Shown here: positions 13,343 to 49,905 of the stretch, in pieces
How the letters are laid out: every line of letters begins with the position of its first letter
Position numbering within the stretch: position 1 is the stretch's first letter
Source of the DNA: Eledone cirrhosa
Lineage: Eukaryota
DNA length: 64,000 bases
Assembly (NCBI GenBank): GCA_964016885.1
Contig: OZ024742.1
Span: 301,568,001-301,632,000 of the forward strand
Direction: 5' to 3'
The notes under the pieces: model-generated
Seen by the model: only the letters and a program-made list of their open reading frames with translations
The model's database searches: none
What the model was told of the DNA's origin: nothing
Made by a program: the position numbers and the translations under genes

Positions 13343-13424
13343 GTATATATACATACATATATACATACATACATATATATATACATACATATATATATAC
13401 ATATATATACATACATATATATAC

Positions 13425-13456
<32 letters not shown>

Positions 13457-13469
13457 ATATATACATACA

Positions 13470-14118
13470 TAGAGCAAACTATAGAGGTATAAAGCTGATG
13501 AACCAGGTCATGAAAGTAACAGAAAGAGTTATAGCACAGTTGATTAGGGCCCGGGTGAAACTAGATGAGATGCAATTTGGGTTTGTGCCAGGAAGAGGCA
13601 CCACTGATGCCCTCTTCCTTGTGAGACAGTTACAGGAAAAGTACCTAGCTAAAAGTAAGCCACTCTACCTGGCATTCATCGATCTCGAGAAAGCCTTTAA
13701 CAGAGTTCCCCGTGCTATAATCTGGTGGACTCTTAGAAAACTAGGAGTAGATGAATGGCTTGTGAAAGCTGTACAAGCCATGTATAGGGGAGCAGTCAGC
13801 AAAGTTAGGGTTAACAATGACTATAACGAGGAATTTAGCGTACAGGTTGGTGTCCACCAGGGCTCTGTTCTTAGCCCTCTCCTGTTCATCATAGTTCTGC
13901 AGGCAATAACGGAGAAGTTTAAGACCGGATGCCCATGGGAACTCCTGTATGCAGATGACCTCGCACTTATAGCTGAATCTATGGTAGAACTAGAGAAGAA
14001 ATTCCAAACTTGGAAGCAGGGACTAGAAAGAAAGGGTCTCAAAGTCAACCTGACAAAGACTAAGGTCCTTGTAACTAGACGAGAAAACAGAACCCAGATC
14101 CCCTCAGGGAAATAGCCT
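13470..14118 (+). mobile_element. RTE RT fragment, inverted relative to 12400-13035
   Basis: NYRGIKL...QGSVLSP...YADD...PSGK*. Confidence 0.9.
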
Positions 14119-16199: not shown

Positions 16200-17160
16200 A
16201 GACAAGCCGAATTACCCACGCCTTGCTGCGTTCCACACATTTTTTTTGTAAGAAAATGATGATATAATTTAATATAATCAGTGATATAATTTATGGAGAA
16301 AAACTCTGCATTACAATATTACTCAATGTAAAATGTAATGCATGAAAAATTGGAAAACATTATTTTTTGTACTATATCAAATCAAAATTACATTATTAAA
16401 TCTTATCTTATTTTGTTTCTTGTAAATAATTTTTTTTTAAATATCAATTCAAAACTTGATCATTTCATTTTTGTGTAAAGCATTATTTTCAAATTAGAAA
16501 TTCAAAGTTTATTTATTTATTTTTTAACATAATAAATACATGAAAATATATTTCATACTTTGTCCTAATGAAGAACTTCAGGGTAAACAATATTTCTTGT
16601 CTTTCTTTGATTGGCTAAAATGTAGAGATTTTTTGAAGTTCCAGTCCTTGAAACAGCCACATAAAACATGCCATGACTGAAACATGGGTTTGTCAGATCT
16701 ATACCAATAGTTTTGAAAGTTTGACCTTGACTCTTATTGATGCTCATGGCAAAGCATGACCTCACTGGGAACTGCAGCCTCTTAAATATAAAAGACAACT
16801 CGCTATCACTTGGTATAAGTGGAATCCTTGGAATGAGAAGAGCTTGACCTTTGTAAGCCCCGAATATAATGGTTGCTTCAATCAAGTTCTCATGCAATCT
16901 TGTTACAACACATCTTGTTCCATTTATTGGCCAAAATTTTCACTATGGGGGGAGGTTTAACCCCCATTAGGGTGTTTTAATATTATTGAAATTTGCTGAA
17001 ATTTTGTGAATAGGAATCATATCTTGTCATTTACCTATGGTTTAAATTTCATATAAATCGAAGGGAAAACATTTTCAGCGCGGGTTTGTGACTCCAGGGA
17101 ATCCTTTAATTAAAATGAAATATACTTATCAAAGTACCCTCGGCAATGTAGTTTCAGAAT
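16200..17160 (-). mobile_element. Helitron 3' fragment (PIF1-type helicase C-terminus)
   Basis: ORF 16565-16897 IPRIPLIP...FKRLQFPVRSCFAMSINKSQGQT...CFSHGMFYVAVSR...TRNIVYPEVL. Hairpin plus CTTGT (CTAG-like) terminus near 16202. Confidence 0.88.
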
Positions 17161-19110
17161 ATGGAAATAGTTGCTGAGATGCTGAAGGCATCTGGTATGG
17201 TGGGACACACCATGGTCACCCAGATAGTTAACCAAGTCGTACAGAATGGGGTTGTTCCGAAGGACTGGCGTAGCAGCATCATCATTAACTGTTATAAGGG
17301 TAAAGGAGCTGCCCTAGATAGGAGTAACTATAGAGGCATTAAATTAATCGACCAGGTCATGAAGGTCACGGAAAAAGTAATAGCGCAACTAATCAGAGAG
17401 AGAATTGATCTAGATGAAATGCAGTTCGGGTTTGTGTCGGGCAAAAGTACCACAGACGCTTTTTTCATTGTACGACAACTACAGGAGAAGTACCTAGCTA
17501 AAAGTAAACCCCTATACTTAGCTTTTGTCGACTTGGAGAAAGCCTTCGACAGAGTCCCCCGTTCCATTATCTGGTGGGCTCTTAGAAAACTAGGTGTTGA
17601 CGAATGGCTTGTGAGAGCTATACAAGCCATGTATAAAGAAACAGTCAGCAAGGTTAGAATTAACAACGAATATAGTGAAGAGTTTAGCGTAAAAGTTGGC
17701 ATCCATCAGGGCTCTGTTCTCAGCCCCCTACTATTTATTATTGCCCTTCAGGCTATAACAGAGGAGTTCAAGACCGGCTGCCCATGGGAACTCCTATACG
17801 CAGATGACCTAACACTCATAGCTGAATCAATGGCCGAGCTAGAGAAGAAATTCCAAACATGGAAGCACGGCCTAGAATCAAAAGGCCTTAAAATTAACCT
17901 GGCTAAGACTAAAGTTCTAGTTTGTAAGAAAGAAAATAAGGCGGCGGTCCCTTCCGGGAAGTGGCCATGCTCAGTGTGTAGGAAAGGCGTAGGTAGAAAC
18001 TCCATTTTGTGTCCCAAATGTAAAGTATGGGTGCATAAAAGATGTAGTGGGATCACAGGTAAGCTAACTAAGAACATAGATTTTACATGTGGCCGGTGCT
18101 CTGGTGCAATAAGTAGCAGCAAGTGCCCACAAAATACTAGCTTTTTCAACTGCGCAGAGGGTTCTATAGAAATAGTGGGGGAGGGTGCTCTTAAAGTACA
18201 GTAGCTAGAGTCAGAACTGGATGGAAAAAGTTCAGAGAGCTTATACCACTATTAGCCGCTAAAGGGTTCTCCCTAAAAATGAAAGGCAGGTTGTATGATG
18301 CCTGCATACGAACAGCAATGTTGCATGGCAGTGAGACCTGGGCACTGTGTGCAGAGGATATACGCAGACTAGAGAGGAACGAAGCTTGCATGCTCCGCTG
18401 GATGTGTAATAGTAATATACGTGAACGGCAAAGCATAAACGAACTAAGGAAAAAATTAGAAATAAGAGGGATCAGATGTTGTTTACTCGAGAGAAGGCTA
18501 CGTTGGTATGGTCACGTGATGCGCATGAAAGACGATAGCTGTATAACAAAGTGCAGGGCAATAAAGATAGATGGTAGCCACGGAGTAGGCAGACCCAGAA
18601 AAACCTGGGACGAGCTGATAAATTCCGACTTCACACACTTACAACACTCCAAGACAATGTCACTGGACCGAGACCTTTGGCGGTACTCAGTAATAGAGAA
18701 GACCCGCCTTACCTAAATACAAAGTAAAACCTACTACAGTCAGTCGGCATCTCTAACAAAATACACCCCCGTCCCACCACCCCCACCCCATCCACACCGC
18801 CCCTTTCAATGTAAAGTTATGTTGGTACCACAACATCCAGGCCGAAACAAATGAGATTGTGTAGGTGTCACGACAAAAAAACACACAGTCCACGCTGTAA
18901 TGTGGCCGTGTAGGCAACACGGTAAAAACCTCCCAGACCCACACTGTAAATGTGGTTGGTGTTAGGAAGGGCATCCAACTGTAGAAAACCTGCCAGACAG
19001 TCCTATGCGAGCAAGACAACCACTCTTGCCTCAAGTGGGAATACCCCCGTCCAAACCCATGCAAGTGTGGAACACGGACGTTAAACGTTGATGATGATGA
19101 TGATGATGAT
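17161..19110 (+). mobile_element. RTE-clade LINE, 5'-truncated
   Basis: ORFs 17161-18204 (YADD) and 18279-18716, with an internal deletion at ~18180. 3'UTR and (GAT)n tail. Confidence 0.95.
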
Positions 19111-26395: not shown

Positions 26396-26708
26396 CATCA
26401 TAATCCTCTGGGATTATTACGTCAGGTCCATTCTCTTTGTAGGTTTCCTCGGATTCATCAAACTCCATACATTTTGTCTCAAGTTTCTGGATATCACGAA
26501 AGTTATAGATCAATAGAGGTTGCTTTAGATCAAACTCAAAGTCCAGTTGATTGAGATAACATGATTGGGCAGCACACAACACTACCCTGGGTAAAGTAAA
26601 CTTAGAAACCAGGTCTTGTAAGGTATATGTCTGGGTACTCCAGCGGAATTCTTCCGACGAAGACAATATCGAGTTTGCTGTTTTTAAAACTTTCCTCAGA
26701 CGGTTCAT
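26396..26708 (-). CDS. CABIT-domain protein (GAREM/THEMIS-like), first coding exon
   Basis: MNRLRK...RWSTQTYTLQDLVSKFTLPRVV...QPLLIY...VIIPEDYD|G resembles the CABIT N-terminal W-S..Y.L..LV....LP.VV and IP..Y.G.F motifs. Donor G|gtaag at 26395. The spliced CDS is 1224 nt (407 aa) with no stops. Confidence 0.85.
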
Positions 26709-28988
26709 TGTAGTGGATATCTTCCTTGTCTATATATTGTAGTAGATATCTTCCTTGTCTATATCATTGTAGTGGATATCTCTATTATTTATATCATTGT
26801 AGTGAATTTTATTTTTATCTATATCATTGTAGTGGATATCTTCCTAGTTTATATCATTGTAGTGGATATCTTCCTAGTTTATATCATTGTAGTGGATATA
26901 TTCCTAGTTTATATCATTGTAGTGGATATCTTCCTTGTATATATCACTGTAGTAGATATCTTCTTTGTTTATATCACTGTAATGGATATCTTCCTTGTCT
27001 ATATCATTGTAGTGGATATCTTCCTAGTTTATATCATTGTAGTGGATATCTTCCTAGTTTATATCATTGTAGTGGATATATTCCTTGTATATATCACTGT
27101 AGTGGATATCTTCTTTGTTTATATCACTGTAGTGGATATCTTCCTTGTCTATATCATTGTAGTAGATACCTTCCTTGTCTATATCACTGTAGTGGATATC
27201 TTCCTAGTTTATATCACTGTAGTGAATATCTTCTTTGTTTATATCACTGTAGTGGATATCTTCCTTGTCTATATCATTGTAGTAGATACCTTCCTTGTCT
27301 ATATCATTGTAGTGGATATCTTCCTTGTCTATATCATTGTAGTGGATATATTCCTTGTATATATCACTGCAGTGGATATCTTCCTAGCCTATATCATTGT
27401 AGTAGATACCTTCCTTGTTTATATCATTGTAGTGGATACCTTCCTTGTCTATATCATTGTAGTGGATATCTTCCTTGTATATATCACTGTAGTAGATATC
27501 TTCCTTGTCTATATCATTGTAGTGGATATCTTCCTAGCCTATATCATTGTAGTGGATATCTTCCTAGTTTATATCATTGTAGTGGATATATTCCTAGTTT
27601 ATATCATTGTAGTGGATATCTTCCTTGTATATATCACTGTAGTAGATATCTTCTTTGTTTATATCACTGTAATGGATATCTTCCTTGTCTATATCATTGT
27701 AGTGGATATCTTCCTAGTTTATATCATTGTAGTGGATATCTTCCTAGTTTATATCATTGTAGTGGATATATTCCTTGTATATATCACTGTAGTGGATATC
27801 TTCTTTGTTTATATCACTGTAGTGGATATCTTCCTTGTCTATATCATTGTAGTAGATACCTTCCTTGTCTATATCACTGTAGTGGATATCTTCCTAGTTT
27901 ATATCACTGTAGTGAATATCTTCTTTGTTTATATCACTGTAGTGGATATCTTCCTTGTCTATATCATTGTAGTAGATACCTTCCTTGTCTATATCACTGT
28001 AGTGGATATCTTCCTAGTTTATATCACTGTAGTGAATATCTTCCTTGTCTATATCATTGTAGTAGATATCTTCCTTGTCTATATCATTGTAGTAGATACC
28101 TTCCTTGTCTATATCATTGTAGTGGATATCTTCCTTGTCTATATCATTGTAGTGGATATATTCCTTGTATATATCACTGTAGTGGATATCTTCCTAGCCT
28201 ATATCATTGTAGTAGATACCTTCCTTGTTTATATCATTGTAGTGGATACCTTCCTTGTCTATATCATTGTAGTGGATATCTTCCTTGTATATATCACTGT
28301 AGTAGATATCTTCCTTGTCTATATCATTGTAGTGGATATCTTCCTAGCCTATATCATTGTAGTAGATACCTTCCTTGTTTATATCATTGTAGTAGATACC
28401 TTCCTTGTTTATATCACTGTAATGAATACCTTCCTTGTCTATATCATTGTAGTGGATATCTTCCTAGTCTATATCATTGTAGTGGATATATTCCTTGTAT
28501 ATATCACTGTAGTGGATATATTCCTTGTATATATCACTGTAGTGGATATATTCCTTGTATTTATCACTGTAGTGGATATCTTCCTAGCCTATATCATTGT
28601 AGTAGATACCTTCCTTGTCTATATCGTTGTAGTAGATACCTTCCTTGTTTATATCATTGTAGTAGATACCTTCCTTGTTTATATCACTGTAATGGATATC
28701 TTCCTAGTCTATATCATTGTAGTGGATATCTTCCTAGTCTATATCATTGTAGTGGATATCTTCCTTGTATATATCACTGTAGTAGATATCTTCTTTGTCT
28801 ATATCATTGTAGTGGATATCTTCCTAGTCTATATCATTGTAGTGGATATCTTCCTAGTTTATATCATTGTAGTGGATATCTTCCTTGTATATATCATTGT
28901 AGTGGATATCTTCCTTGTATATATCACTGCAGTAGATATCTTCTTTGTCTATATCATTGTAGTGGATATCTTCCTAGTCTATATCATT
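26704..28988. repeat. 30-bp minisatellite, ~76 copies (ATATCATTGTAGTGGATATCTTCCTTGTCT)
   Basis: Seen directly. The variant pattern recurs at a 690-bp (23-unit) offset, e.g. 26881 vs 27571. Confidence 0.98.
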
Positions 28989-29065
28989 CATTCCATTGTC
29001 TACAATGAACATCAGTATATAAATAAATATTTCATGGAGGCTGTGTGTGGTACACCATCTGTTGT

Positions 29066-29090
29066 CTGATAAAATAAAATGAGAAACTTA
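29066..29090 (-). promoter_or_regulatory. probable splice acceptor for the exon holding the array and the CABIT start codon
   Basis: Minus strand tttctcattttattttatcag|acaac: a polypyrimidine tract plus CAG just upstream of the array. Confidence 0.55.
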
Positions 29091-29999: not shown

Positions 30000-32900
30000 A
30001 TACAAGACGTATAAACTGCACACCAATTTTGGTGCTTAACGGTTCAAGTTGATTCAACTACTCATCCAAAGAGGTTTATTGCTGCTGTTTTTCCCCCTGA
30101 TTTTGGATTGTTCTACGCATTTGTGGATTATACTCTCTTTTTCTTCAACTCCAACCGTCAACGTGTGTACATTTTCTAAGCACAATAATGCCTGCAACTA
30201 CAAGAGCTCGCTCGGCTGTCCAAACTTCTCATAATGTTATGCCACCGACCTATAATTGTAATTGCAAGCGGTTGAAACTGAACCTTACCCAAATCGAACT
30301 GAAAAACGCACACTTTCAAACTCAACTTGATGCCCTCATGTCACAGATGTTGATAATGGAAGAAACGATATTATCACTTCAACCTCCTAATGATGCGACT
30401 TCCAGACCGTCTAAATCTACATCTTCCCAGACAAAGACGATCAAAGCAAAACCGAAGCACCAAAAGAAGCAAAGCAAGAAGATAGCAGATGCTGCACAAA
30501 ACAACACCAAGCAAAACACATTGGTCTCGTCTACTCATCAAATTCCTGCAGGTGCATCTACCACGATGAATGATGCAGGTTTAATCTCTGATGAAGGCAC
30601 TGTAAATTCCTCTGCCGGGGTTTGGCGGTCATCCAAAAGACGACACCGCCGCTCCGGCATGGTTGATGATCGAAACAAACCTTATCTCCCTATCAGCCCA
30701 GCAGACAATTTTGTTACGGCAAATACAAGTCTGCTTGATGATGAAGCGGATCGGGTCAACTCAGTAAACGGTTTGCCATTATGTTACAGGTAAATGTGGT
30801 ACCCCCAAGACAGCTGCCAGCGCTGAAGAACAACAGTGTAATAAATCTGTCTATGTCTACGGAGTTTCCGAAAGCTGTGCAAACACTGAAAAGGAGAGGT
30901 ACCACCAAGACTTTGAGTTTATCTCAAACATTATCAAAGTCACTATTGGCGATTCAGATGGCAAGACGTAAGTCTGAGCCGTGAGAATTGGCCGGAAATC
31001 TGAAGAACGAAATCCTAATTCAAGACCCCGACCCATCAAAGTCAAATTCTCTACTTCTCAGCAAGCAGAGGACTTCCTTGCCAAAGCCAGAAAGTGTTAC
31101 CGGGGTAGTAAATTGGATTTTCGGAAGGAGTTCTCCTTAAAAGAAAGAATCCGCTGGAGAACTTTGAAGACAGAACTCATAGTCACGCATAGCTGCCGGA
31201 GAGACTGGTCTGCGGATAAGAAATGGAAAGATAGTACACTCTTACCTTTGGGCGGCCCCAATAACGATATCCAAAGACTCCAAACTTCCCTGGCAGAACA
31301 AACAGCCATCTCAGATGAGAAGGTGTGCAAGAAGCCCTCCAACTTCCTCCCGAAGATCCCCAAAAAGCGATTAAAGCCCAAATCGCCGTCCCTTGATTAC
31401 TCATTCAAAGTTATTTTAACCAACGCTTGCTCTCTTCTGTCCAAACTTGATGATCTCCATTCCGTTATTGCAGACGAGAAGGCAGACCTCATAGTCATAA
31501 CCTAAACCTGGTTAAATTCAAAAGTCAAGGATGCAGAGATTCACATTCCTGACTTTACTACATTCCGATGTGATAGATCTCAAAGAAAAGGTGGAGGAGT
31601 TATCGTTTATGTAAGATCATCACTCAAACCATCCCGTCAGCCTCTACCACCGAACACCGTACTTTCGGAGAACTTTGATGCTGTTCTTTGCAATCTTAAT
31701 GTGGGTGGAGAAACTATTCCCGTTCTTTCCATCTATCGCAATCCTGGTTCTACAACAGATGAAGATCAGAGTCTCATTAATGCAATGAAAGCTGTCTCAA
31801 GATGTCCAAATGACTGTCTTATACTCGGGGATTTTAATGCCCCGACTATAGACTGTAACTCAAATGTGTGCACGTCCAATAATAACTTTGACCAATTATT
31901 GCTCGATAGGACGGAAGAATGTTTCATCTGCCAGCATGTTACAAAACCGACAAGAGCTCGAAGTGGTCAACGACCATCGTTACTAGACCTTATCTTCTCC
32001 TGCTATCCTAGATCCGTATCGTCTCTGCAAGTTCTGTCTCCACTTGGGAAAAATGATCATGCAGTACTGAGCTTTAGCATGCATACTTCGCTTGCACTGC
32101 CTCCTGTTTCGAATCAGCTGAGAAGAATATTTGCTGCTATCAATCATGATCTTATCAAAATGGCCTCCAACGAGATAAATTGGCGCAGCCTAACTGAAAA
32201 TCAGTCTGTTGAAACTTTGTGGTGAGAAATAAAGGAAATTCTACTTGGGCTAACAGAAATGGCAGTGTTGCTGAGAACGCCAAAACGCAAGAAACACAAA
32301 CCCTGGATAACAAAGACAATTATCCGCGAACGGAAGTTAAGAAACGCTGCTTGGGAGCACTATCAAGAGACCATGTCTGTGACGCCATTTGAAGTCTACA
32401 GAAAGCAGCGAAATCATGTCGAGCATATTTCCAGAATTGGAAGGCAAAATTTTGAAAGGGAACTTGCAAATGATGCCGGTCGTAATCCAAAGCGCTTTTA
32501 TGCTCACGTGCAAAGAAATCAAAAACTGAATAACCAAATTGTCACTCTCCGAAACCCCGAAGGTGCAGTTATTGAACACGCTGACAAACAAGCTTCTCTT
32601 TTTGCCGATGTTTTCGCAAATATCTTCAAGGAGGACGATGGCAGAGAACCTCCAAATCTAAATCTAAACATGATCTCCCCACCAAAGCAGCCAACCACAG
32701 TCAGACCGGACGAGGTAGAAAAGTTGCTTTTGTCCTTAGATGTGAATAAGGAGCATGGTCCAGACGGTCTATATCCAGCGATTTTGGGTGCAGTTGCACC
32801 CAACCTTGCTAAACCTCTAGCCACACTATTCAACCTGTCATTGGCTACCGGAGTTGTTCCTGCCGACTGGAAAGTAGCTATAATTTGCCCTATCTTTAAA

Positions 32901-34260
32901 AAAGGCGACAAAGAAGATCCGGGGAACTACAGACCCGTGAGCCTCACCTCAATCACCTGTAAAGCCTTGGAATCTCTAATCAAGCCGGCAATTATGGCTC
33001 ATCTTGCGTCTTTCACTGCAATTTCTCCATCTCAACACAGTTTCATCCCGAAACATTCCTGTCTCACAAACCTACTCGTGATGGAAGAATGGGTGACGAG
33101 GATAGTGTACGATGGAGATGCGGCTGATATTATCTTTCTCGACTTCGCAAAAGCCTTTGACTCCGTCAACCACCGCCTGCTCCTGTATAAGCTCAGCAAC
33201 TACGGTCTCCATCACTCGATTATAAAGTGGATTGGGTCATTTCTGGAGAGTCGTACTTGCAGAGTTAGGATCAATGGCAGTCTGTCATCGGGGGTAGGTG
33301 TAGGCAGCAGCGTTCCCCAGGGCTCTGTGTTAGGCCCAATTCCCTTCCTTCTATACATCAACGACATGCCGGACGTGATTGGTGGAAATGTGCTTCTATT
33401 TTCAGATGATGTGAAAATGGTAGCCTGTAGGAGCGAGATCGACAATCTCAAGTCCTGCCTCCAGCGCGCCTGGAGTTGGTCCATTGACTGGGATTTATAC
33501 CTCAATGTCGAAAAGTGTTGCCATATGGCAGTGGGTACACCTTATAACTCAGCTCTTACCTTCAATGGTGGCATTGCTCCTTTGAAGGAGGTTGAGGAGA
33601 CTAAAGATCTTGGTCTGATGGTTGACTCGTCCTTCAAACCATCAAAACATTGCATTCAAGCCGCAAACAAGGCAAGGAGCTCTCTTTTTCTTATTTGACG
33701 CTCCTTTGCCAAACTTACTCCAGAAATTTTCAGGCCTCTCTATGTCGCCTTCGTGAGACCGCACCTAGAATATGGCATCCAAGCATCAAACCCATATCTC
33801 ATCCGGGATATCCATCACTTGGAGAGAGTTCAACGATTAGCGACTCGAATGGTACAGGGTCTTCATGAGCTGCCCTACGAAAGCTGGCTGCAGAAGCTGA
33901 ACCTCTTCTCCTTGGAGCGTCGACGGCTACGAAGCGATCTCATTTTGGCTTACAATCTCTTCAATTCACTCCGGCACTTGAAAGGGGTCTACGTGGACAT
34001 GACAAAAAGCTGTTTCACCGCCACTTTCGCCTAAATAGACGGAAAGCTGCTTTCTCGATCTGCATCTCTGGACCCTGGAATCGGCTTCCAGAAGAAGTAG
34101 TCAATGCGTCAACCACGCAACAATTCAAGGCGAAATTGGACCTGTGTTGGACCACTGTGTTTCAGACTGTGTAAATGTTGCCCCCTGCCCTCCTTACATG
34201 GCATCTGAAGCATCTATGTTTTAATTTCTGCCAATTATATTGAATTGAATTGAATTGAAT
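30000..34260 (+). mobile_element. near full-length CR1/L2-group LINE (ORF1 + APE + RT), inactivated
   Basis: ORF1-like RIG...RPRPIKVKF; APE TNACSL..K...LIVIT*TWL...ILGDFN...LDL; RT NYRPVSLTS, LDFAKAFD, VPQGSVLGP, LFSDD; (ATTGA)n tail at 34238-34260. Several stops. Confidence 0.92.
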
Positions 34261-39460: not shown

Positions 39461-39984
39461 AATATCAAATAATTATTAAAAACGTTACAGGAGTCGCATT
39501 ATAATTAAGTTTCATACATACATATATATATGTGTGTATGTATGTATATATGTTATTCTACTGTAAATTTATTTATATGCTTTGTATATATTATATATAC
39601 ACAAATAATTGTTTCTACTTTAGGCACAAGGCCAGCAAATTACCCAGTGCATTACTGGTACTTTATTTTATCGACCCCGTAAGGATGAAAGGCAAAGTCT
39701 ACCTCGGCGGGATTTGAACTCAGCCGAGGTAGACTTTGCCTTTCATCCTTACGGGGTCGATAAAATAAAGTACCAGTAATGCACTGGGTAATTTGCTGGC
39801 CTTGTGCCTAAAGTAGAAACAATTATTTGTGTATATATAATATATACAAAGCATATAAATAAATTTACAGTATATACACAAATATATATACACAAATAAT
39901 GAATCTGTATATTAAAACATCGTTTGTATTATTCAATCAGTTTATTGAACAACTAGAATGCTCATGGTCAAGTACTTTATACAC

Positions 39985-40618: not shown

Positions 40619-41571
40619 CAGTGGTCGCCAACCTTTCTAAAACCGAGGAACCCTCTAAATATTTTGAATTCTTCACGGAACCTATACAATACAAAACTTT
40701 TCAAAAAAAAAAAAAGTATTTATTTATTTTAGTGTTTCATGCTTAGTATCAAGGTGTCTTTTAAGTTTTGCAGGATTTAAACAGCTATTTGATAGAACTT
40801 TTGAACATAGCAAACACATGGGCTGATCTGGTATATCTTTTTTAGTGTCAGCTTTTTAAAATCCATATCTAACATAATCATCAGACCACTGTCTAACCTT
40901 ACTGCTGGTATCTAACTTCAGCTTCTTTGCAGTAGACATCATATCAATGTTATTTATCTACAGTTAAACTTTTTAATATGACATTGGCGATATCCAATTT
41001 TAGCGGCATTTAGGCCGCTTACTTGCTGCATACTTCAATGTATGAGGCTATTCCAACAAATTTACATCCCCCCCCCCTTTTTTTTTTAGCCGTTAAAAGA
41101 AATATAGATTTTTTTTTTTTTTTCGGCGATCTATTAGAGAGGGGGTGCTCCCTTCTTCTCTTACCTGTACAAGCCGATATAAAGAGATGGCCCACGTACA
41201 CGGGAAGAAATATAGATTTTTTTGATTTTTTTATTTCAATTTATTAGAGAGGGGGGGTGCTCCCTTCTTCTCTTACCTGTACAAGCCGATATAGAGAGAT
41301 GGCCCACGTACACGGGCCATTATTGCTACTTTCACCCATCTTTCATGGAATTGGCTGGGACTGAGTGCCTTTTTCTCCAAGAGGACCATTTGTTGGTCGG
41401 CGACATCCCCACAATTTCCTCGTTGCAAACGCATCTGGGACATTTCTTTTCCAAGGGGTTTCCGTCCCGGAATCCGTGTCTGTAGAGCCTTTCCCGAACG
41501 GGCAGGGCCTCTCGGTATAATAGTAAGTATTAGCGGTTGTAATAAAAATGCAATCAAAATGTAATAAATAC

Positions 41572-41707
41572 CTTCACTGATTTCTTTCCTTATATTATCA
41601 ACAGAAGTTGGTATGTCACCCAAAGTTCGCTTTGTATGTTCCCGAATAGCAGTGAATTTTGATAAAATTGTTTCTAATTCCTTCTCCACAGTAAGACAAA
41701 TATCCAT
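41572..41707 (-). pseudogene. RMND5: captured RMND5-like exon 1, left-arm copy
   Basis: MDICLTVEKELETILSKFTAIREHTKRTLGDIPTSVDNIRKEISE followed by G|gtattt. Confidence 0.7.
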
Positions 41708-42323
41708 GGGTAGTTGAAGAGGATAAGTATGAAAGAACAGTCATTTAAATTTACAGATGGACAGATGTGGTGTTTGGCGGGGTTTGAGATATATAGAAAA
41801 ATAATTATTTACAGAAAAAGAAAATAATAAAGAATTATTATAATTTTTTTAAAGATTTATATCTTTTTGGACTTTTGGAAGCAAATTTTAAACTGTATAT
41901 CGCAACAATAAAAAAGAAAAAAAATATTTCTTTAAACAATATATTGTTCCGATATACAGTTTAAAATCTTTGGGAAACATCTACCGTCTCCACTCATAAA
42001 GCTGTCATTTCGCCACCGCCACATGAATTCATTCAAATATGACAAACATGGATCGGCTAGTGCCGTTTATTTTTTTTATTTTTTTTTTGGCATGAGACCA
42101 GAGTCCTTCAATATGTTGGGTATGCGTTCTGATACCGGATCGACAAAATTTAGTGAATGATTCACTGTAGAGTGTTGATAATTAACAGGCATATGTCGTA
42201 TGTATCATGGATCCACTCAGCACATGGTTTTGTATAATGGGTAGCAGGGTCTCAGCAGTGCGATCTGGGATTTCTTTAAGAAAAATTTTTCTGGGATTAT
42301 TGGTATCGATCCCACCAATGACC

Positions 42324-42664
42324 TGTAGCGGTTGTCTCCCTTGTTTTGATTAGGATCTAGACGGGAAGTGGAACCCTTTCTGCAACTTCCGGTCAGAGCC
42401 CTATAAAACTAACAACTTTAAGCTTCCTTTCTCTCATTGCCTTTTCGGCACCAGGTCAAGAGCCTCTCATTGGGCTCCGCCATTCATTTGGCCAACAGGC
42501 GCCTGGCTAAGGCCAGGCGGCCTCTGTCAGCCGCGTTTGCCTGGCAATCAAAACGGTAACTACTAACTTTGCTTCATTCTAACAACATCTATCTTTGACA
42601 TGTCTCGTTTTGTTACATTCATACAACCTCAGTAATCTCGCTATATTGGTGACCCTGACGTGAT
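42324..42664 (+). mobile_element. LTR (322 bp) plus tRNA-Trp primer-binding site
   Basis: TGTAGCG...CGCTA(T)A terminal inverted motif and internal CTATAAAA, followed by TGGTGACCCTGACGTGAT, complementary to the tRNA-Trp 3' end with one wobble. Confidence 0.8.
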
Positions 42665-42700
42665 ACGAACACGCAGCCGTTCATCGCTATAAGTGGTCAC

Positions 42701-42731
<31 letters not shown>

Positions 42732-44258
42732 AAAAAAAAATAGCACATCTGGTTTTGTGAGTAACATTACGAATACACAGCAAATTTAGCGACAAACTAT
42801 GAAAATACTCAAGGACACGCACACACGCACATGTGGAATTCGCACAGACATACTTTTTCTCTCACGCATCAATTAACTGTCGCATTTCACCAATATATAT
42901 ATATGTTTCTCGTTTCTTACAACGAACACTTTCAAAACAAAAAAAAAAAAAAAAAAACATTTCACGATATATATATATGTTTCTCGTTTCTTACAACGAA
43001 CTCTTTCAAAACACACAAAAAAAAAAAAGAAATTTGATATTCTTTAAAAAAACATTTCAACAGGAACATTTATTTTCGATGAACCATTGCCTTTTTGTTC
43101 ATCGTTTTCTTCATCGTTCAAGTTTTTTGTTTTTTTCCAAAGTTCACACCAATAATTATGCTGAGTGAAGCCTTTCTTTTTCATCATTGTCACTTTCAAA
43201 ATTGCACTATCATTTTCTCGCGCGTTAGAAATATTATTTTTTTCAACCTTGTATTGGCACGTGTAGGCAGCATAAATTCTCGATTCACAGAGATGTCTCT
43301 ACTCACAGACAGCCGCACGCCAGAGATAACATTTCTCACCAAGGATTCTTCAGCCTTAAGCTATATTCTTCTATTTGCCGGTTTATAAATTTACAATGTA
43401 AATTTACCGTTGATAACCGCGCATTTATTAAGAATGCTTATTTCTCTGGTCGCTGGCCTCTTGACCCTTCCAGGTCAACGCATTCTCAACATCGACCATC
43501 AACTTCGGCTGCTATTTCTAGCACTTTGCGCAACTCATTTTTTCTAAAAAAAAATTTTTTACTGTGAATTTAAACACCGAATACGCTCACTCAGCGAGAC
43601 AACAGCAGCAGCAACAACAATATAACAGCAACAGCAATACATCAATACAGCTTCACCAAAGCCAGAGAATTCATTTTTGCAGCACTCTTCCTGTGAGAAA
43701 ATCCATTCGGAGGTTGGAAATTTCACGATATACCACAGAACAGAAACCACCTGCATTCATTCTCTGGAACACACTTTCTTTCCTGCTGTCATGTGATTGC
43801 ACACCTGTGAACTATATTTTGAACTTTGAGCTCTTCTATTACTTTTACTTTATTACATTGTATCTTTGGGTGATGGATAGATGGATGTCCAGTCGTTCTC
43901 TGGCCAAGAGCGGTTGGCTACCTTGATATCTATCATTGATTTTTTCCAAACATCCTTTTGTCGTAATTTTATGCCAATTCGTGTAAAATACCCAAAGATT
44001 ATGTATATTAATATAAGTTTCACTTTATGAATTTCAGTTTAAAATCAATTATAAGATAATCACCGACAGAGGGCTAATATTTATAATTTTGGGTTATTTT
44101 CCACAATAAAGTGAAACTTATATTAATATACATAATCTTTGGGTATTTTACACGAATTGGCATAACTAGCTCCCTGCCGGTCATTTCAATGCAGATATTG
44201 TTAAAGGTGAAATAACATAGTTCTAATTGATTTTAAACCGAAATTCTGAATAAAGAAA

Positions 44259-45190
44259 ATGCCAGGACGTCCACCTGCACCAATTTTCATTGTTGAAAAT
44301 GTTAATTCATCACAGCAGACGTTAAATATGGATTTGAAAATGAGGGAACTGGCGATTTTAACTGCAAACAAACTCAGTATTATCGAATGTATGGCTCGGA
44401 ACCGATTACTTTCAAACACTATGAACTGTCCTTCATGTAATATTTCCTGTTCGTTTGTAAGTTACAAAGAAGTAATCGACCAATTTCGATGGAAATGTAA
44501 GGTATGCAGTTTAAGAAAATCTGTCCGTTCTGGGTCATTTTTTTTTCGAGGCCACTTAGATTTACATCAAATGATTTATATGATTTACTTCTGGTCAATT
44601 GGGTTCGAAAATATTATTATTGCTGACGAGATTCGGTGTAGTGAAAACACCATTATTGACTGGTGCAACTTTTTACGGGACGTGTGCAGTGAATGGGTGG
44701 ATCGAAACCCATCAAAACTAGGTGGAATGGATGATGACGGAGTCCCAATAGTTGTACAAATCGATGAAAGTAAATACTTTCATCGAAAGTACGCTCGTGA
44801 GACCTGGCATGAAGGCCATTGGGTCATTGGTGGGATCGATACCAATAATCCCAGAAAAATTTTTCTTAAAGAAATCCCAGATCGCACTGCTGAGACCCTG
44901 CTACCCATTATACAAAACCATGTGCTGAGTGGATCCATGATACATACGACATATGCCTGTTAATTATCAACACTCTACAGTGAATCATTCACTAAATTTT
45001 GTCGATCCGGTATCAGAACGCATACCCAACATATTGAAGGACTCTGGTCTCATGCCAAAAAAAAAATAAAAAAAATAAACGGCACTAGCCGATCCATGTT
45101 TGTCATATTTGAATGAATTCATGTGGCGGTGGCGAAATGACAGCTTTATGAGTGGAGACGGTAGATGTTTCCCAAAGATTTTAAACTGTA
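44259..45190 (+). pseudogene. Merlin/ISXO2-like DDE transposase, frameshifted
   Basis: CPSC...WKCKVC zinc ribbon, VQIDESKYFHRKY, WVIGG, DRTAETLLPII, GSMIHT. A deletion removes the second Asp region; out-of-frame H.TVNHS.NFVDP, HTQHIEGLWS and EFMWR follow. Confidence 0.92.
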
Positions 45191-45437
45191 TATCGGAACA
45201 ATATATTGTTTAAAGAAATATTTTCTTTCTTTTTTATTGTTGCGATATACAGTTTAAAATTTGCTTCCAAAAGTCCAAAAAGATATAAATCTTTAAAAAA
45301 ATTATAATAATTCTTTATTATTTTCTTTTTCTGTAAATAATTATTTTTCTATATATCTCAAACCCCGCCAAACACCACATCTGTCCATCTGTAAATTTAA
45401 ATGACTGTTCTTTCATACTTATCCTCTTCAACTACCC

Positions 45438-45573
45438 ATGGATATTTGTCTTACTGTGGAGAAGGAATTAGAAACAATTTTATCAAAATTCACTGCTATT
45501 CGGGAACATACAAAGCGAACTTTGGGTGACATACTAACTTCTGTTGATAATATAAGGAAAGAAATCAGTGAAG
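45438..45573 (+). pseudogene. RMND5: captured RMND5-like exon 1, right-arm copy
   Basis: MDICLTVEKELETILSKF...LGDILTSVDNIRKEISE resembles the RMND5A/GID2 N-terminus as I recall it (MDQCVTVERELEKVLHKF...). Ends at donor G|gtattt. Confidence 0.72.
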
Positions 45574-47351
45574 GTATTTATTACATTTTGATTGCATTTT
45601 TATTACAACCGCTAATACTTACTATTATACCGAGAGGCCCTGCCCGTTCGGGAAAGGCTCTACAGACACGGATTCCGGGACGGAAACCCCTTGGAAAAGA
45701 AATGTCCCAGATGCGTTTGCAACGAGGAAACTGTGGGGATATGTCGCCGGCCAACAAATGGTCCTCTTGGAGAAAAAGGCACTCAGTCCCAGCCAATTCC
45801 ATGAAAGATGGGTGAAAGTAGCAATAATGGCCCGTGTACGTGGGCCATCTCTCTATATCGGCTTGTACATGTAAGAGAAGGGAGCACCCCCCTCTCTAAT
45901 AAATCGCAAAAAAAATAAATAAATCTATATTTCTTTTAACGGCTAAAAAAAGGGGGGAATGTAAATTTGTTGGAATAGCCTCATACATTGAAGTAAGCAG
46001 CAAGCAAGCGGCCTAAATGCCGCTAAAATTGGATATTGCCATGACATTAATAAACAAGAGAAATTAACAGTTTTTTTAATTACAGAAAGTACTTAAATTA
46101 ACTTTAATTTTAGATATTTGGAAAAACTTAACTAGTTAAAAAAAAATTTTAATTTTTAAAAATTGAAATTTCTCCATTTTAGGATGGCAAACATATTATT
46201 TAAAGTCTTATAATAATATTAAAATATTAGAGGTTACTGAAAAAGGTGCAAATTTATAAACAACTAGAAGAAATTTTTTTCAGAGTCCAGCACTTCCTGC
46301 ATATACTACTTTAGGGTCGTATTAAATATTATTGGTAATGTAAATATATTTAAATATCCGCCATACTAAAAGGTGCAAAAAATGCAGATCAGCTGATAGT
46401 GTAGAAGATATGACGATGGTATTGGAAATTAATTCAGATATCTTCTATCTATTTTGACTCAAAGTTAGATATAATATAAGAAGGCTTTAGGCTGCGTTAA
46501 ACATATATTAGATTGGAACAAATAAAGTTTAGTCAAATGCTTGTGGACATATATATTTATTGTATGAAGTAATTTCTCAATTGTGAATGCAGATGTCATC
46601 AAATGAATACATGTGTGGCAAAGTTGATAGTGTATGCATGGAATGCAAAATTACCTTTGTTAGTAGTCGAAACTTTACAGGCGTTATATTTTCTGTACAA
46701 AGTACAACAGAATGTAACGTGTTCTTATTTAGAATTGTCTGTGGAACTGGATGCATGTTGAAAACGACTAGTAAGCGAGTTCACTCTGCGAGGAAACTTT
46801 AGGCGACTTTAAAGCTTTTGTGAGGACAGCAGATTAAAAGGTGTTCTCTATTGAAAACATTCTACTGAACTTACGTTGTGAGAACAGCGAACTGACCCTG
46901 TCTCTCGGCTGAGAGACCTCGCTGAACTGAAGTTTTCAGTTTAAAGTTATGCTGTCATCGACCAACATTTACTTGTTCGTGATTGGTCAATTTCTAAGTT
47001 CAATTAGTGTATTATCAGTAGTAGTCAAATCCTCGGAATTCAGAAAACTATGTCTTTCCAAGAATTGATGTGAAATTGAAAGTATTCAATTTCCACGAAT
47101 CTCAGAACAGTGTTTTTCTACTAATTCAAGTGAGAAACTAAAAGTAGTGTTTTCCACGAATTGGAGTGGAGAACCTGTGTACACTACAATAGTACTCGTT
47201 CATTTATACATTGCACCTTTGGCATTTTCTTTGCACCTTTTTCAGAAAACCCAAAATATTAATGGTAATGTAAATATTTATTTTTTTAAGGAACCCGGAG
47301 TTTGTTCTACGGAACCCCAAGGTTCCGCGGAACCCATGTTGGCGACCACTG

Positions 47352-49905
47352 ACCTACACGACCTCATTTGTTTCGGACTGGATGTTGTGGTACCAACATA
47401 ACTTTACATTGAAAGGGGTGGTGTGGATGGGGTGGGGGCAGTGGGAAGGGGGTGTATTTTTGTTAGAGGTGCCTACTGACTGTAGTAGGTTTCACTTTGT
47501 ACTTAGGTAAGGCGAGTCTTCTGTATTACTGTGTAGCGCCAACGATCTCGGTCCAGTGACATTGTCTTGGAGAGGTGTAAGTGTGTGAGGTCGGAATTTA
47601 TCAAGTCGTCCCAGGTTTTTTTCTGGGTCTGCCTACTCCGTGGCTACCGTCTATTTTTATCGCCCTGCACTTTTTTATACAGCTGTCGTCTTTCATGCGC
47701 ATCACGTGACCGTACCAACGTAGTCTTCTCTCGAGTAAACAACATCTGATCCCTCTTATTTCTAATTTTTCCCCTAGTTCGTTTATGCTTTGCCGTTCAC
47801 GTATATTACTATTACACATCCAGCGGAGCATGCAAGCTTCGTTCCTCTCTAGTCTGCGTATATCCTCTGCACACAATGCCCAGGTCTCACTGCCATGTAA
47901 CATTGCTGTTCGTATGCAGGCATCATACAGCCTGCCTTTCATTTTTAGAGAGAACACTTTAGCGTCTAATAGTGGTATAAGCTCTCTGAACTTTTTCCAT
48001 CCAGTTCTGACTCTAGCTACTGTACTTTCAGAGCACCCTCCACCACTGCTGATTTTGTCACCCAAGTAACGGAAGGTGTCCACTATTTCTAAAAGAACCA
48101 TCTGTGCAATGGAATGAGCTAGTATTGGTGGGCACTTGCTGCTACCAAAGCACCGGCCACATATAAAATCTATATTCTTAGTTAGCTTACCTGTGATCCA
48201 ACTACATCTTTTATGCACCCATACTTTGCATTTGGGACATAAAATGGAGTTTCTACCTACTCCTTTTCTACACACTGAGCATGGCCATTTCCCGGATGGG
48301 ACCGGTGCCCTATTTTCCTTCCTACAAACTAGAACTTTAGTCTTAGACAGGTTAATTTTAAGGCCTTTTGATTCTAGGCCATGCTTCCATGTTTGGAATT
48401 TCTTCTCTAGTTCAGCCATTGAATCAGCTATGAGCGTTAGATCATCTGCGTATAGGAGTTCCCATGGGCAGCCGGCCTTGAACTCCACTGTTATAGCCTG
48501 AAGGGCAATAATAAATAGTAGGGGGCTAAGAACGGAGCCCTGATGAACACCAACATTTATGCTAAACTCTTCACTATATTCATTGTTAATTCTAACCTTG
48601 CTGACTGTTTCTTTATACATGGCTTGTATAGCTCTCACAAGCCATTCATCAACACCTAGTTTTCTAAGAGCCCACCAGATAATGGAACGGGGGACTCTGT
48701 CAAAGGCTTTCTCCAAGTCGACAAAAGCTAAGTATAGGGGTTTACTTTTAGCTAGGTACTTCTCCTGTAGTTGTCGTACAATGAAAAGAGCGTCTGTGGT
48801 ACTTTTACCTGACACAAACCCGAACTGCATTTCATCTAGATCAATTCGCTCTCTGATTAGTTGCGCTATTACTTTTTCTGTGACCTTCATGACCTGGTCG
48901 ATTAATTTAATGCCTCTATAGTTACCCATATCTAGGGCATCTCCTTTACCCTTGTAGCAGTTAATGATCATGCTGCTACGCCAGTCCTTCGGAACAACTC
49001 CATTCTGTATGACTTGGTTTACTATCCGGGTGACCAGAGTGTGTCCCACCGTTCCAGATGCTTTCAGCATTTCAGCAACTATTTCCGAAGGCCCAGCCGC
49101 CTTACCCATCTTCATATCTTTGATTGCCTTACTTATTATACTACCTTCAACTAGCACTGCTGGTCCCTCTGTTGGATCGATGTGGGGGAGACTGTCTTTC
49201 TCCCATTTATTCTCCTCATTTAGTAGCCTTTCGTAGTGACACTTCCAAGCTACCTTCTTATCAGCGTCAGTGATGGCAAGTACGCCATCATCGTTAAGTA
49301 CACACTTCTCCCCGATAATATCACGGTTTTCCTTGACACATTGCCTAGCAATCCTGAACACCTCACGTTTTTGGTCCTCGCGTTGTAGAACATGCTTGAA
49401 CTTTCTTTCCTCTGCTTCTCTTCTTGCGAAGTACACTTGTCTCCTAGCTTCCCTCCTGGCCACTTAATAGTCTTCTCTACTTCCCCCATCCCGCCATACT
49501 TTCCAAGCCTGCTTTTTGGCCTTAATTGACTCCTCCACCTTACTGTTCCACCACCACGTTACTCTCCTCCTGCCTATAGGCCTGCTCCAGCCGCAGACTT
49601 CATCTGTCGCCATCAGCAAGTTTGCTTTCAGGAAATCCCACTGTTCCTCTATATTGTACGACTCTAATTGCTCTCCCTTACAGTCGAAAGCATCAAGTAA
49701 TATGCTTTTAAATTTATTACTGGCTGTGGGGTCCTTTTAGCTTCATATTTTTCTCCTGAGGATAGTCCTCTTCTGTTGTCGAGAACGTCTCGTCCTGACT
49801 ATGAGGTCGCTAATTATGAGTCTATGTTGAGAGGTGCATTATTCATGGGGGAGGGATTTAGTGTTTACAATAGACACTCTGTCACGTCTTCTGGTAAGGA
49901 TATAT
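47352..49905 (-). mobile_element. RTE-clade LINE, 5'-truncated
   Basis: 620-aa ORF 47601-49463 with RT (YADD) and PHD-like finger. End of the APE domain (QHRLIISD) near 49810-49830. Confidence 0.95.

Follow-up and report, generated by a model that had tools for sequence, protein, structure and literature searches.

Bacterial composite transposons of the Tn5/Tn10 type carry inverted copies of one terminal sequence that bracket a stretch of DNA, and it is the outer ends that are used. Large palindromes are known to form from a short inverted repeat lying beside a break, e.g., in Tetrahymena rDNA, in yeast and in mammalian cells. The locus studied here concerns transposons of the Merlin superfamily, which create target-site duplications (TSDs) of 8 or 9 bp and whose original description gave terminal inverted repeats (TIRs) of 24–462 bp, as cited in the main text of PMC8101967. 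Merlins with kilobase-sized TIRs have already been catalogued: in supplementary file 5 of the same source, two zebrafish entries from Repbase (Merlin-1_DR and Merlin-N5_DR) are given a ‘TIR size’ of 1000 bp, and no other entry of the table for which a TIR size is listed exceeds 325 bp.

Here we describe a Merlin element of Eledone cirrhosa that terminates on both sides in the same right-hand end. An initial annotation had interpreted it as a dead element that duplicated its own 3′ end in inverted orientation, enclosed foreign DNA like a bacterial composite transposon and was then mobilised as a 5-kb unit. We found it to be another decayed fold-back Merlin and not a new, cargo-carrying composite.

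Results

The window (i.e., the whole 64-kb stretch analysed, whose coordinates are used throughout) lies on the forward strand of contig OZ024742.1 in assembly GCA_964016885.1, at positions 301,568,001–301,632,000. Within it, the Merlin unit occupies 40986–46040 (5,055 bp) and is bounded by one 8-bp TSD, ATGACATT, found at 40978–40985 and 46041–46048. The two flanks (40740–40985 on the left and 46041–46400 on the right, the last and first 8 bp of which are the two TSD copies) are part of a high-copy host repeat with copies elsewhere that are 97–98% identical. Ten of the 11 other copies of this repeat that we fetched read ...TAATATGACATT|AATAAAC..., with a single ATGACATT and no insert, and the eleventh has another Merlin inserted 56 bp beyond this point. 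Because the paralogous copies carry ATGACATT once and uninterrupted, it is a true duplication, as had been proposed for the whole unit from the start. The same empty-site join (40977 to 46041) was also seen in the contigs, sharing 8 letters in run X6 and 6 in run X4; contig depth and variants at the locus mostly reflect other repeat copies, and the empty-site joint alone was usable. The ends of the unit (GGCGATATCCAATTTTAGCGGC... and GGCAATATCC...) both begin with GG and represent the same terminus in opposite orientation. The two outer ends thus arrived jointly in a copy of another repeat, as a single insertion, which bears out this part of the initial annotation.

Counted from the terminal GG, the inverted arms measure 1338 bp on the left (40986–42323, minus strand, starting GGCGATATCC...) and 1219 bp on the right (44822–46040, plus strand, ending ...GGATATTGCC), the same figures as originally given. 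By self-alignment and family comparison, the left arm is the inverted right part of the family (reference positions q2072 to q854) and includes the 3′ third of the transposase pseudogene, and the right arm is that segment of the right-hand copy which is mirrored on the left. Both ends of the unit are right ends, as claimed initially. The extra duplication noticed in the left arm and put at about 120 bp proved to be a 112-bp tandem unit (41125–41236, minus strand), which is missing from the right arm; it also occurs in the family copy C28:80.3M, the other copies checked having a single unit. Each arm additionally carries a putative host-gene fragment borne by the family, i.e., an RMND5-like first coding exon with a GT donor-like site after it (45435–45572, plus strand; weak match to residues 1–43 of human RMND5A, E 0.015), with its mirror copy, placed by symmetry, at 41573–41710 (minus strand).

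Arm-to-arm similarity was uneven. The inner left arm (41415–42323, minus strand) differs from 44822–45730 by 2 substitutions in 909 bp, whereas the outer ~300 aligned bp contain 11–13 substitutions plus indels (3.8%, 11/292) and differ more between the two arms than from other family elements, the change from diverged to near-identical sequence being a sharp switch at 41414/41415. The transposase is inactivated in both arms by the same lesion, in agreement with the initial annotation: a deletion of 29 bp between ATAC repeats at 44943/44944 (mirrored at 42201/42202), with loss of the codons ...DRWRAYNP..., together with a deletion of 1 bp at 45015/45016. These deletions are private to the element, being present in both window arms and in none of the 10 other arms aligned. 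Judging from this pattern, the inner arm is likely to be a tract of recent arm-to-arm conversion or resynthesis. More generally, the nearest relative of an arm tends to be its partner arm (10 of 22 family arms), which fits arm-to-arm homogenisation in the Merlin family.

We also considered whether two independent head-to-head Merlin insertions could mimic one unit. Such an origin would explain why the arms represent different family variants over their outer ~300 bp, but one 8-bp duplication bounds all 5,055 bp and the paralogous repeats are uninterrupted between these points; moreover, neither host-repeat sequence nor an inner terminus lies between the arms, and the inner arms have their private lesions in common. 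We therefore rejected it as having next to no probability.

To the right of the centre lies a Merlin transposase pseudogene (44259–45170, plus strand, 3′ limit approximate; delimited by open reading frames, profile search and family alignment), whose frame starts with the ATG at 44259, stays open until a stop at 44961–63 and is broken thereafter. Its score against the DDE_Tnp_IS1595 profile (19.8 bits) is below the 27-bit cut-off because the window frame is truncated; in the family copy C1:48.45M, an open frame of 286 aa scored 46.3 bits (E 5.8e-12). The profile of the N-terminal zinc ribbon, Zn_ribbon_IS1595, gave 17.3 bits (E 0.0047), below its cut-off of 25.4 bits; many Merlin members, though not all, have an IS1595-type zinc ribbon. 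Based on the domain, the GG ends and the 8-bp TSD, we assign the family to the Merlin superfamily (IS1595/IS1016-like DDE), the identity first suggested for it. An intact transposase of this family was absent from the arms inspected, 13 of 13 being interrupted, and the only stop-free family match was the 286-aa query frame from C1:48.45M itself. Other Merlin families in the genome have open frames of 320–341 aa (34–65% identical), longer than the 286-aa frame.

The sequence between the arms, initially read as a foreign core, is of two kinds. The stretch 42324–43975 (plus strand) is, as judged by family matches, a truncated, non-autonomous LTR retrotransposon with an exact TG terminus and a PBS-like TGGTGACCC. 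Its 5′ LTR covers approximately 42324–42649 and is followed by the PBS-like motif and internal sequence; the 3′ LTR and about 76 bp of internal sequence are missing. The insert (query q1–1645) had end-to-end matches at more than 30 loci with 89–94% identity. In all four full relatives checked, which are 2.14 kb long, the LTRs (371–375 bp) are 98.9–100% identical, TGGTAACCC follows the 5′ LTR (PBS-like), GGCGGGAGG precedes the 3′ LTR (PPT-like) and the element is flanked by a 4-bp duplication (ATAT, CACA, AACA or GAGT). A search of the LTR piece for open reading frames of at least 130 aa yielded a single 134-aa frame without a Pfam match, and the frames at 42354–42566, 43522–43926, 44964–45116 and 45405–45815 likewise matched no Pfam family. 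The 1.65-kb insert is thus the 5′ part, in one uninterrupted stretch, of a young non-autonomous LTR retrotransposon of ~2.1 kb and not captured cargo, which leaves the analogy with foreign DNA enclosed by a bacterial composite unsupported. LTR-family homology ends at 43975 and Merlin homology begins at 43969, leaving a 7-bp overlap (TTATGCC, 43969–43975) as a microhomology junction. From there, 43969–44821 is continuous with the right arm and comprises a hairpin, the 5′ UTR and the first two-thirds of the transposase. The supposed core (42324–44821) is partly native, only the LTR element being foreign and 43969–44821 being what remains of the right-hand Merlin copy.

Among the 40 top-ranking candidates scored in each search (of 902 and 984), where any match over the full length should come first, both Merlin/LTR junctions occurred at this locus only. 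With the junctions unique and no second copy of the 5-kb form among those candidates, mobilisation as a 5-kb unit did not gain support. Over 42230–42410, none of the contigs of runs X4–X7 (library type unknown) bridges 42323/42324, a neutral result given that these contigs are short and dominated by repeats; the arm contigs continue into uninterrupted Merlin sequence with 1 difference from the window and hence come from other copies. The missing bridge and the 2 differences in 909 bp of the inner arms would be in keeping with a mis-join or cross-polishing of inverted repeats during assembly that produced the left arm or its near-identity. We regard such an artefact as very improbable: the boundaries are coherent (a TSD with paralogous empty sites, an exact LTR terminus and a microhomology junction), the outer arm parts differ as real paralogous sequences do, the spacer of 2.5 kb lets long reads easily span the 5-kb unit, and many other loci have the same design.

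The hairpin at 43969–44165 (plus strand), identified by self-alignment and folding, has perfect 60-nt arms (43969–44028 and 44106–44165) around a 77-nt loop and a DNA folding energy of −63.7 kcal/mol (z −15.2), and it forms the symmetry centre of palindromic family copies elsewhere. Specifically, C11:53551045–53554872 is a palindrome of 3,828 bp which matches its own reverse complement over the full length (97.4%), with arms of up to 1.9 kb, two transposase pseudogenes and the duplication CGTACTGT. The same hairpin is the centre of four further palindromes (C28:100.17M, C1:48.45M, C1:57.99M and C3:228.2M), which have internal deletions in one arm or in both; the fold-backs C2:221.96M and C24:19.56M lack this centre. 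A 1.7-kb fold-back form, in which the reverse complement of q2072..1304 is joined to q1452..2072, occupies at least 24 loci, with a full opposite-strand partner at 16 of the 24 and a partial one at 4. Fourteen two-ended fold-backs were compared at their flanks: the 8-bp TSD is perfect in 9, matches at 7 of 8 positions in 3 and is mismatched in 2. All four arms of the C11 palindrome and C1:48.45M have a deletion of q1503–1591 at different loci with different duplications, meaning that the palindromic form itself moved. Four of about 13 hairpin-bearing family copies have one arm only, so the two-armed form is common without being universal. Shorter inverted ends also occur (63–64 nt at C10:5.28M and about 138 nt at C3:37.5M), and their left junctions are all different. 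Each own-genome search scored the best 40 of 900–2100 candidates, and these counts are lower bounds that may leave out rarer forms.

The two-right-end design is thus a family trait in this genome, and its invention by the dead element in the window is not supported. A parent family that normally has such long inverted ends, named beforehand as the observation that would speak against the initial reading, is close to what the genome contains. With large inverted arms (1338 + 1219 of 5055 bp), multiple family copies and TSDs of its own, the element has the features of a fold-back. As for its relatives, the genome-wide search of arms and core recovered family fold-backs with different TSDs but no further copies of the Merlin/LTR junctions among the candidates scored, and the closest arm match (93%, best 40 candidates) identified no sister copy. 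The autonomous parent and its true left end, which had been looked for, did not emerge either. C8:33.39M, where a 46-nt GG terminus directly adjoins the hairpin and looks like a canonical left end, was discarded as proof that a short-TIR form came first: its junction was seen at one locus only among the candidates scored, and the terminus is 90–94% identical to the end of another, MITE-like Merlin.

Left-side breakpoints of other copies concentrate near the hairpin loop, seven of eight falling within the 60 nt to its left and the eighth 2 nt beyond (positions q-2, q30, q31, q32, ~q38, q54 and q56). Such clustering suggests hairpin-associated stalling and invites an alternative in which one template-switching repair event built the structure, which then moved in trans as a 5-kb unit; this would give the initial annotation a mechanism. 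A dead Merlin would have been copied from its right end inward until synthesis stalled just past the hairpin and jumped, via the 7-bp microhomology, to an LTR template (a linear cDNA, perhaps, in which case the exact terminus would be accounted for); the product would then have become linked to a left arm still being synthesised, for which the right arm had in turn been taken as template. The microhomology at 43969–43975, the position of the junction at the foot of the 60-nt stem, the sharp switch at 41414/41415 and the private lesions in both arms agree with this scenario, and multicopy Pack-TIRs are explained by template switching in the published model (PMC8277862). Nonetheless, we hold it to be unlikely. 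It calls for several switches in one event, as against two common events (integration and deletion); integrase by itself yields an exact LTR terminus; both junctions are single-copy among the candidates scored, so that nothing shows the 5-kb form ever transposed; and a design that pre-exists in the family need not arise here.

Discussion

We consider it likely that the window element is a single insertion of a defective Merlin with two right ends, whose architecture was inherited and in which an LTR element became nested and was then trimmed. Its design would have come from the family, with an ancestor that, as extrapolated from more distant members, may have been a fuller palindrome. The transposase that cut at both outer ends presumably acted in trans, every family transposase copy examined being broken. 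An LTR element would have integrated into the left arm at q853/854, and a later deletion at the 7-bp microhomology would have removed its 3′ part together with about 656 bp of the left arm, reaching up to the hairpin foot. The inner arms were probably homogenised after the lesions arose, by gene conversion between them or by repair synthesis. The LTR insert may equally have arrived after the Merlin insertion at the window site, because both junctions are unique and there is no second 5-kb copy among the candidates scored.

Some observations sit less comfortably with this inherited, nested and trimmed element. Its ancestor’s state has to be derived from distant members, there being no sister copy, and the far end of the LTR insertion, at which a duplication of 4 bp would have been proof of integration, has been lost. 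Also, the left Merlin homology stops at q1, the very foot of the 60-nt stem, which is unexpected for a random deletion and for which template switching during repair stalled by the hairpin is at least as good an explanation. One may go further and suppose, albeit with considerable doubt, that the hairpin serves as a self-repair device. Where a copy has lost its left end, its repair or replication would stall there, the nascent strand would fold back and copy itself, and one-ended, immobile remnants would repeatedly become two-right-ended palindromes that a transposase could move again; the window element would be such a re-made copy with a retroelement picked up as filler. This would explain why, in three lineages, both arms have private lesions, why partner arms are often nearest relatives and why breakpoints fall within 60 nt of the loop.

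Under our preferred reading (i.e., inherited architecture, nesting and trimming), the window element represents ordinary transposon decay, instructive in that one locus records a fold-back transposon with a retroelement nested in it, a deletion at microhomology and the homogenisation of arms. The family is the more valuable subject, as it offers a graded series from a palindrome with two transposases to gene-less, 1.7-kb fold-backs; with one common hairpin centre, the series provides material on how fold-back and long-TIR, MITE-like elements originate from ordinary transposons. If transcribed, the long and nearly perfect inverted arms would give double-stranded RNA against the family.

How does the element compare with known systems? 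Like Tn5 and Tn10, it has inverted copies of the same terminus that bracket other DNA. Unlike in those transposons, its modules are not complete two-ended elements, given that the left one has the outer terminus only and stops at q854 at the LTR terminus, and the right one begins at the hairpin without a left terminus; in addition, what lies between them is not a captured host segment but part of a nested retroelement together with the element’s own 5′ part. The C11 copy resembles the products of large-palindrome formation in having a short hairpin-forming repeat exactly at the symmetry centre of a large palindrome. Among the papers listed in a literature search, as judged by titles and the beginnings of abstracts, none is about fold-back Merlin elements. 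Within the superfamily, Merlin-1_DR and Merlin-N5_DR have kilobase-scale inverted ends like those of the window family, as far as their table rows describe them (PMC8101967). FB4/Ssk-FB4 of Drosophila melanogaster is reported as a multicopy fold-back with inverted ends of ~700 bp and a host-gene fragment, moved by an unknown transposase and ascribed to template switching (PMC8277862). Its counterpart here would be the weakly matching RMND5-like first exon in the arms (E 0.015). By contrast, FB4 is described as MULE-like with 9–10-bp duplications, and its cargo as a near-complete, expressed gene (PMC8277862), compared with one putative exon in the Merlin family. Finally, the ‘Foldback-like’ Galileo of Drosophila differs in belonging to the P superfamily and in its 7–8-bp duplications, but according to PMC4168063 it likewise joins an ordinary DDE superfamily to very long, dynamic inverted ends, with tips better conserved than the rest and many defective copies beside no functional one.

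A single insertion delimited by two outer ends

The defective fold-back Merlin at 40986-46040 (5,055 bp), which carries two inverted right ends, is bordered by the 8-bp repeat ATGACATT at 40978-40985 and 46041-46048. On both sides (40740-40985, and 46041 onward) the element is embedded in one high-copy repeat, with 97-98% identity among copies. We found that 10 of the 11 other copies of this host repeat that were fetched are uninterrupted (...TAATATGACATT followed directly by AATAAACAAG...), with a single ATGACATT and without the insert, and that the eleventh is interrupted 56 bp beyond this point by a different member of this Merlin family. The unit is therefore a single entry defined by its two outer ends, which rules out two separate Merlin insertions; the uninterrupted paralogous copies also bear out the target-site duplication that the initial annotation had placed around the whole unit. 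The join 40977->46041 additionally occurs, with 8 and 6 shared letters, in contigs of two public runs (library type unknown), whose depth and mismatches to the window identify them as paralogous copies of the host repeat. This repeat was struck twice by the Merlin family, in different copies and at positions 56 bp apart: once in the window (40740-40985/46041-46400; ATGACATT) and once at C2:221965137-221965439 (fetched stretch L066; TTAACTTT). The double strike could be due to target preference or to chance.

Arms and transposase

The repeat finder placed the inverted arms at 40985-42323 (minus strand) and 44822-46041 (plus strand), that is, 1338 and 1219 bp counted from the terminal GG, and reported a tandem duplication of 112 bp (41125-41236; D3) in the left arm only; the arm lengths and the internal duplication of about 120 bp described initially were thus recovered. 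In a gapped alignment of the two arms, 41415-42323 and 44822-45730 (909 bp) differed by only 2 substitutions, at 41610/45535 and 41920/45225, and the outer part by 11-13 substitutions and several small indels. The proposed lesion common to the two arms is real: a 29-bp stretch between two ATAC repeats is deleted in each (site 44943/44944, mirror 42201/42202), with loss of codons reading ...HTDRWRAYNP... in other copies, and a single G is missing from each at 45015/45016. Neither deletion was present in any of the 10 other arms aligned.

The window's transposase frame is too short for the Pfam threshold; an open frame of 286 aa in another copy of the family matched DDE_Tnp_IS1595 (46.3 bits), and the GG termini and 8-bp duplications fit the summary of the Merlin superfamily in PMC8101967. 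We found no intact transposase in the 13 transposase-bearing family arms inspected, all of which were interrupted. Hence, of the earlier proposal that a dead element had moved in trans, the transposase damage stands for both arms, and movement in trans is what we infer from the interruption of all 13 arms.

An exon-like open reading frame (MDICLTVEKELETILSKF...) lies at 45435-45572 (+), with its mirror at 41573-41710 (-), and is followed by a GT donor-like site. It matches residues 1-43 of human RMND5A weakly (E 0.015). The arms of this Merlin family thus seem to contain a first exon of host origin (RMND5-like).

A family of fold-back elements

We fetched 42 loci from the 3.0-Gb genome to which the window belongs and mapped onto them a yardstick of 2,072 nt (window 43969-46040, q1-q2072; hairpin q1-197, ATG q291, arm boundary q854). 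Each genome search scored its best 40 candidates, so that the counts of copies are lower bounds. A complete palindrome of 3,828 bp lies at C11:53551045-53554872 (L069:146-3973); aligned with its reverse complement, it matched from end to end (97.4%). It comprises two head-to-head transposase pseudogenes around the same hairpin, with one TGA each in the match, arms about 0.9% apart in substitutions, and a perfect 8-bp duplication (CGTACTGT). Hairpin-centred palindromes with one or both arms internally deleted were found at C28:100.17M, C1:48.45M, C1:57.99M and C3:228.2M, and fold-backs without the centre at C2:221.96M and C24:19.56M. A 1.7-kb form, composed of the reverse complement of q2072..1304 joined to q1452..2072, was present at 24 loci among the matches listed, with an adjacent opposite-strand partner that was full in 16, partial in 4 and not listed in 4. 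The two-right-end design, whose origin had been placed in the window element itself, thus occurs at many other family loci.

Fold-backs elsewhere bear 8-bp duplications of their own: among 14 two-ended fold-backs with locatable termini, the duplication was perfect in 9, a 7/8 match in 3 and without match in 2. Furthermore, a deletion of q1503-1591 is common to all four arms of the C11 and C1:48.45M elements, which differ in their sites and duplications; the palindromic form itself has therefore transposed. Four copies (C1:177.67M, C18:4.87M, C28:80.3M and C1:107.47M) are one-armed; they lack a duplication and, over 1.5 kb, a left terminus. Short or medium inverted ends lie beside the hairpin in a few copies (C10:5.28M, C3:37.5M and C8:33.39M); the canonical-looking left end at C8:33.39M was considered as a sign of short-TIR ancestry and dropped, its junction being found at a single locus.

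Several further observations concern the family and its relatives. Transposase frames of 320-341 aa without interruption are found in many other Merlin lineages of the genome, at 34-65% identity to the transposase of this family. Immediately upstream of the C3:228.2M fold-back there is a Merlin-type MITE of 509 bp (L005:206-714), whose termini (GGCGATATCCAATTTTACCGCC...) are related and whose 8-bp duplication (AAATTCAG) is perfect. The Merlin termini (40986-41020, 46006-46040 and others) come in two variants, in which a 6-nt loop between the 6-nt stems AGCGGC and GCCGCT is inverted (ATTTAG or CTAAAT), and some elements, e.g., C2:221.96M, have one variant at each end. Likewise, at C1:107.47M the central hairpin has its 77-nt loop flipped relative to the transposase. 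Recombination or template switching inside small hairpins would be expected to leave such a flip/flop pattern of terminal and central loops.

A two-part interior

The DNA between the arms consists of Merlin sequence and a piece of another element. The Merlin part (43969-44821) runs on without a break into the right arm. It begins with a central hairpin (43969-44165; I5 of the repeat finder) whose 60-nt arms pair perfectly around a 77-nt loop (DNA folding energy -63.7 kcal/mol, z -15.2), followed 3' by a leader of about 90 nt and the first 234 transposase codons (ATG at 44259).

The other part, 42324-43968 (q1-1645 of that query), matched more than 30 loci over its whole length at 89-94%. Full copies among the scored matches, of which there were more than 30 (fetched examples L044-L048), continue for about 84 bases after the query end and then repeat the first ~375 bp. 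The 4 full copies examined were 2.14 kb long, with LTRs of 371-375 bp that were 98.9-100% identical and 4-bp target duplications (ATAT, CACA, AACA and GAGT); in all of them a TGGTAACCC motif follows the 5' LTR and a purine run precedes the 3' LTR. Given these features, the insert at 42324-43975 is a piece of a young, non-autonomous LTR retrotransposon, and the near-identity of the LTR pairs together with the 4-bp duplications shows that the 2.14-kb family was very recently active. The window's piece begins at the exact 5' terminus (TGTAGCGG at 42324); the 3' LTR and about 76 bp of the internal region are absent from it. Since homology to the LTR family ends at 43975 and homology to the Merlin copies starts at 43969, the junction is a 7-bp microhomology (TTATGCC, 43969-43975). 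From 902 and 984 candidates, respectively, the 40 best were scored, and neither Merlin/LTR junction had a second locus among them, although a full-length match would have come first. What had been read as captured foreign DNA, in the manner of a bacterial composite transposon, is therefore an LTR-retrotransposon piece plus the element's own Merlin 5' part.

Arm mosaicism and origin of the structure

Within the inner segment, each window arm has its partner as nearest relative, at a distance of 0.2% (vs. 1.3-1.8% for the other copies). The outer ~300 bp differ by 3.8% (11/292), and there both arms are more similar to arms from elsewhere in the family (1.3-2.5%); among the copies checked, only C28:80.3M also has the left arm's 112-bp duplication. 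Near-identical inner arms, diverged outer parts and private lesions in both arms indicate that inner arm sequence was probably copied from arm to arm after the transposase damage, and that the outer parts have separate histories. Private indels are found in both arms in three lineages (the window element, C11 with C1:48.45M, and C28:100.17M), and the own partner was closest for 10 of 22 arms in a rough nearest-neighbour count, whose alignment suffers where copies have large indels. Arm-to-arm copying thus seems common in the family.

The most likely history has four steps. The ancestor would have been a hairpin-centred Merlin with two right ends, into whose left arm an LTR retrotransposon integrated at q853/854. 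A microhomology-mediated deletion would next have removed the 3' part of the LTR element together with ~656 bp from the inner side of the left arm, stopping at the foot of the hairpin, and arm-to-arm conversion would have produced the near-identical inner arms. The LTR integration, the deletion and the conversion may equally have preceded or followed insertion at the window site; the family survey yielded no sister copy of the window element.

Alternatively, a single template-switching repair may have made the whole interior, which we regard as unlikely. It draws on the copies without symmetric continuation, whose breaks left of the loop lie at or near the 60-nt stem (7 of 8 inside, one 2 nt beyond): q1 in the window, and q-2, q30, q31, q32, ~q38, q54 and q56 elsewhere. 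The sequences joined there are arm interior, flanking DNA, a MITE-like end and, in the window, the LTR element. This clustering suggests synthesis from the right end, past the loop, that stalls once the new strand can fold back, after which the strand would either copy itself, giving perfect palindromes, or jump to another template. The q30-32 breakpoints occur at three unrelated loci (L033:1501, C1:177.67M; L035:1501, C28:80.3M; L034 ~2323, C28:100.17M), each with a possible microhomology of 4-5 nt; two of the three loci are one-armed, without left terminus or duplication. Within the family, what most deserves specialist attention is the complete palindrome with its two transposases, together with the clustering of breakpoints at the hairpin.

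Genomic surroundings and known systems

The window consists mostly of mobile or repeated DNA (11600-14115, 17152-18716, 26688-29069, 31506-33698 and 47601-49463), including several open reading frames resembling non-LTR-type reverse transcriptases (motif ...LLYADDL...; one of 620 aa) and a minisatellite of 2.4 kb readable as one long open frame. An inverted repeat at 39539-39892 (I2; 170-nt arms, 96% complementary, 14-nt spacing), in microsatellite-rich sequence, possibly represents a MITE or a small fold-back element. We recognised no host gene adjacent to the Merlin. Judged by its structure, a hairpin RNA from the Merlin element is plausible.

Merlin TIRs of 24-462 bp are given in the main text of PMC8101967, and its supplementary table of Repbase entries lists two zebrafish elements (Merlin-1_DR and Merlin-N5_DR) with a 'TIR size' of 1000 bp. 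Galileo, as described in PMC4168063, is, as here, a fold-back-like member of an ordinary superfamily, and FB4, according to PMC8277862, is fold-back-like and carries host-gene cargo; the window element thus belongs to an already known sort of fold-back transposon.
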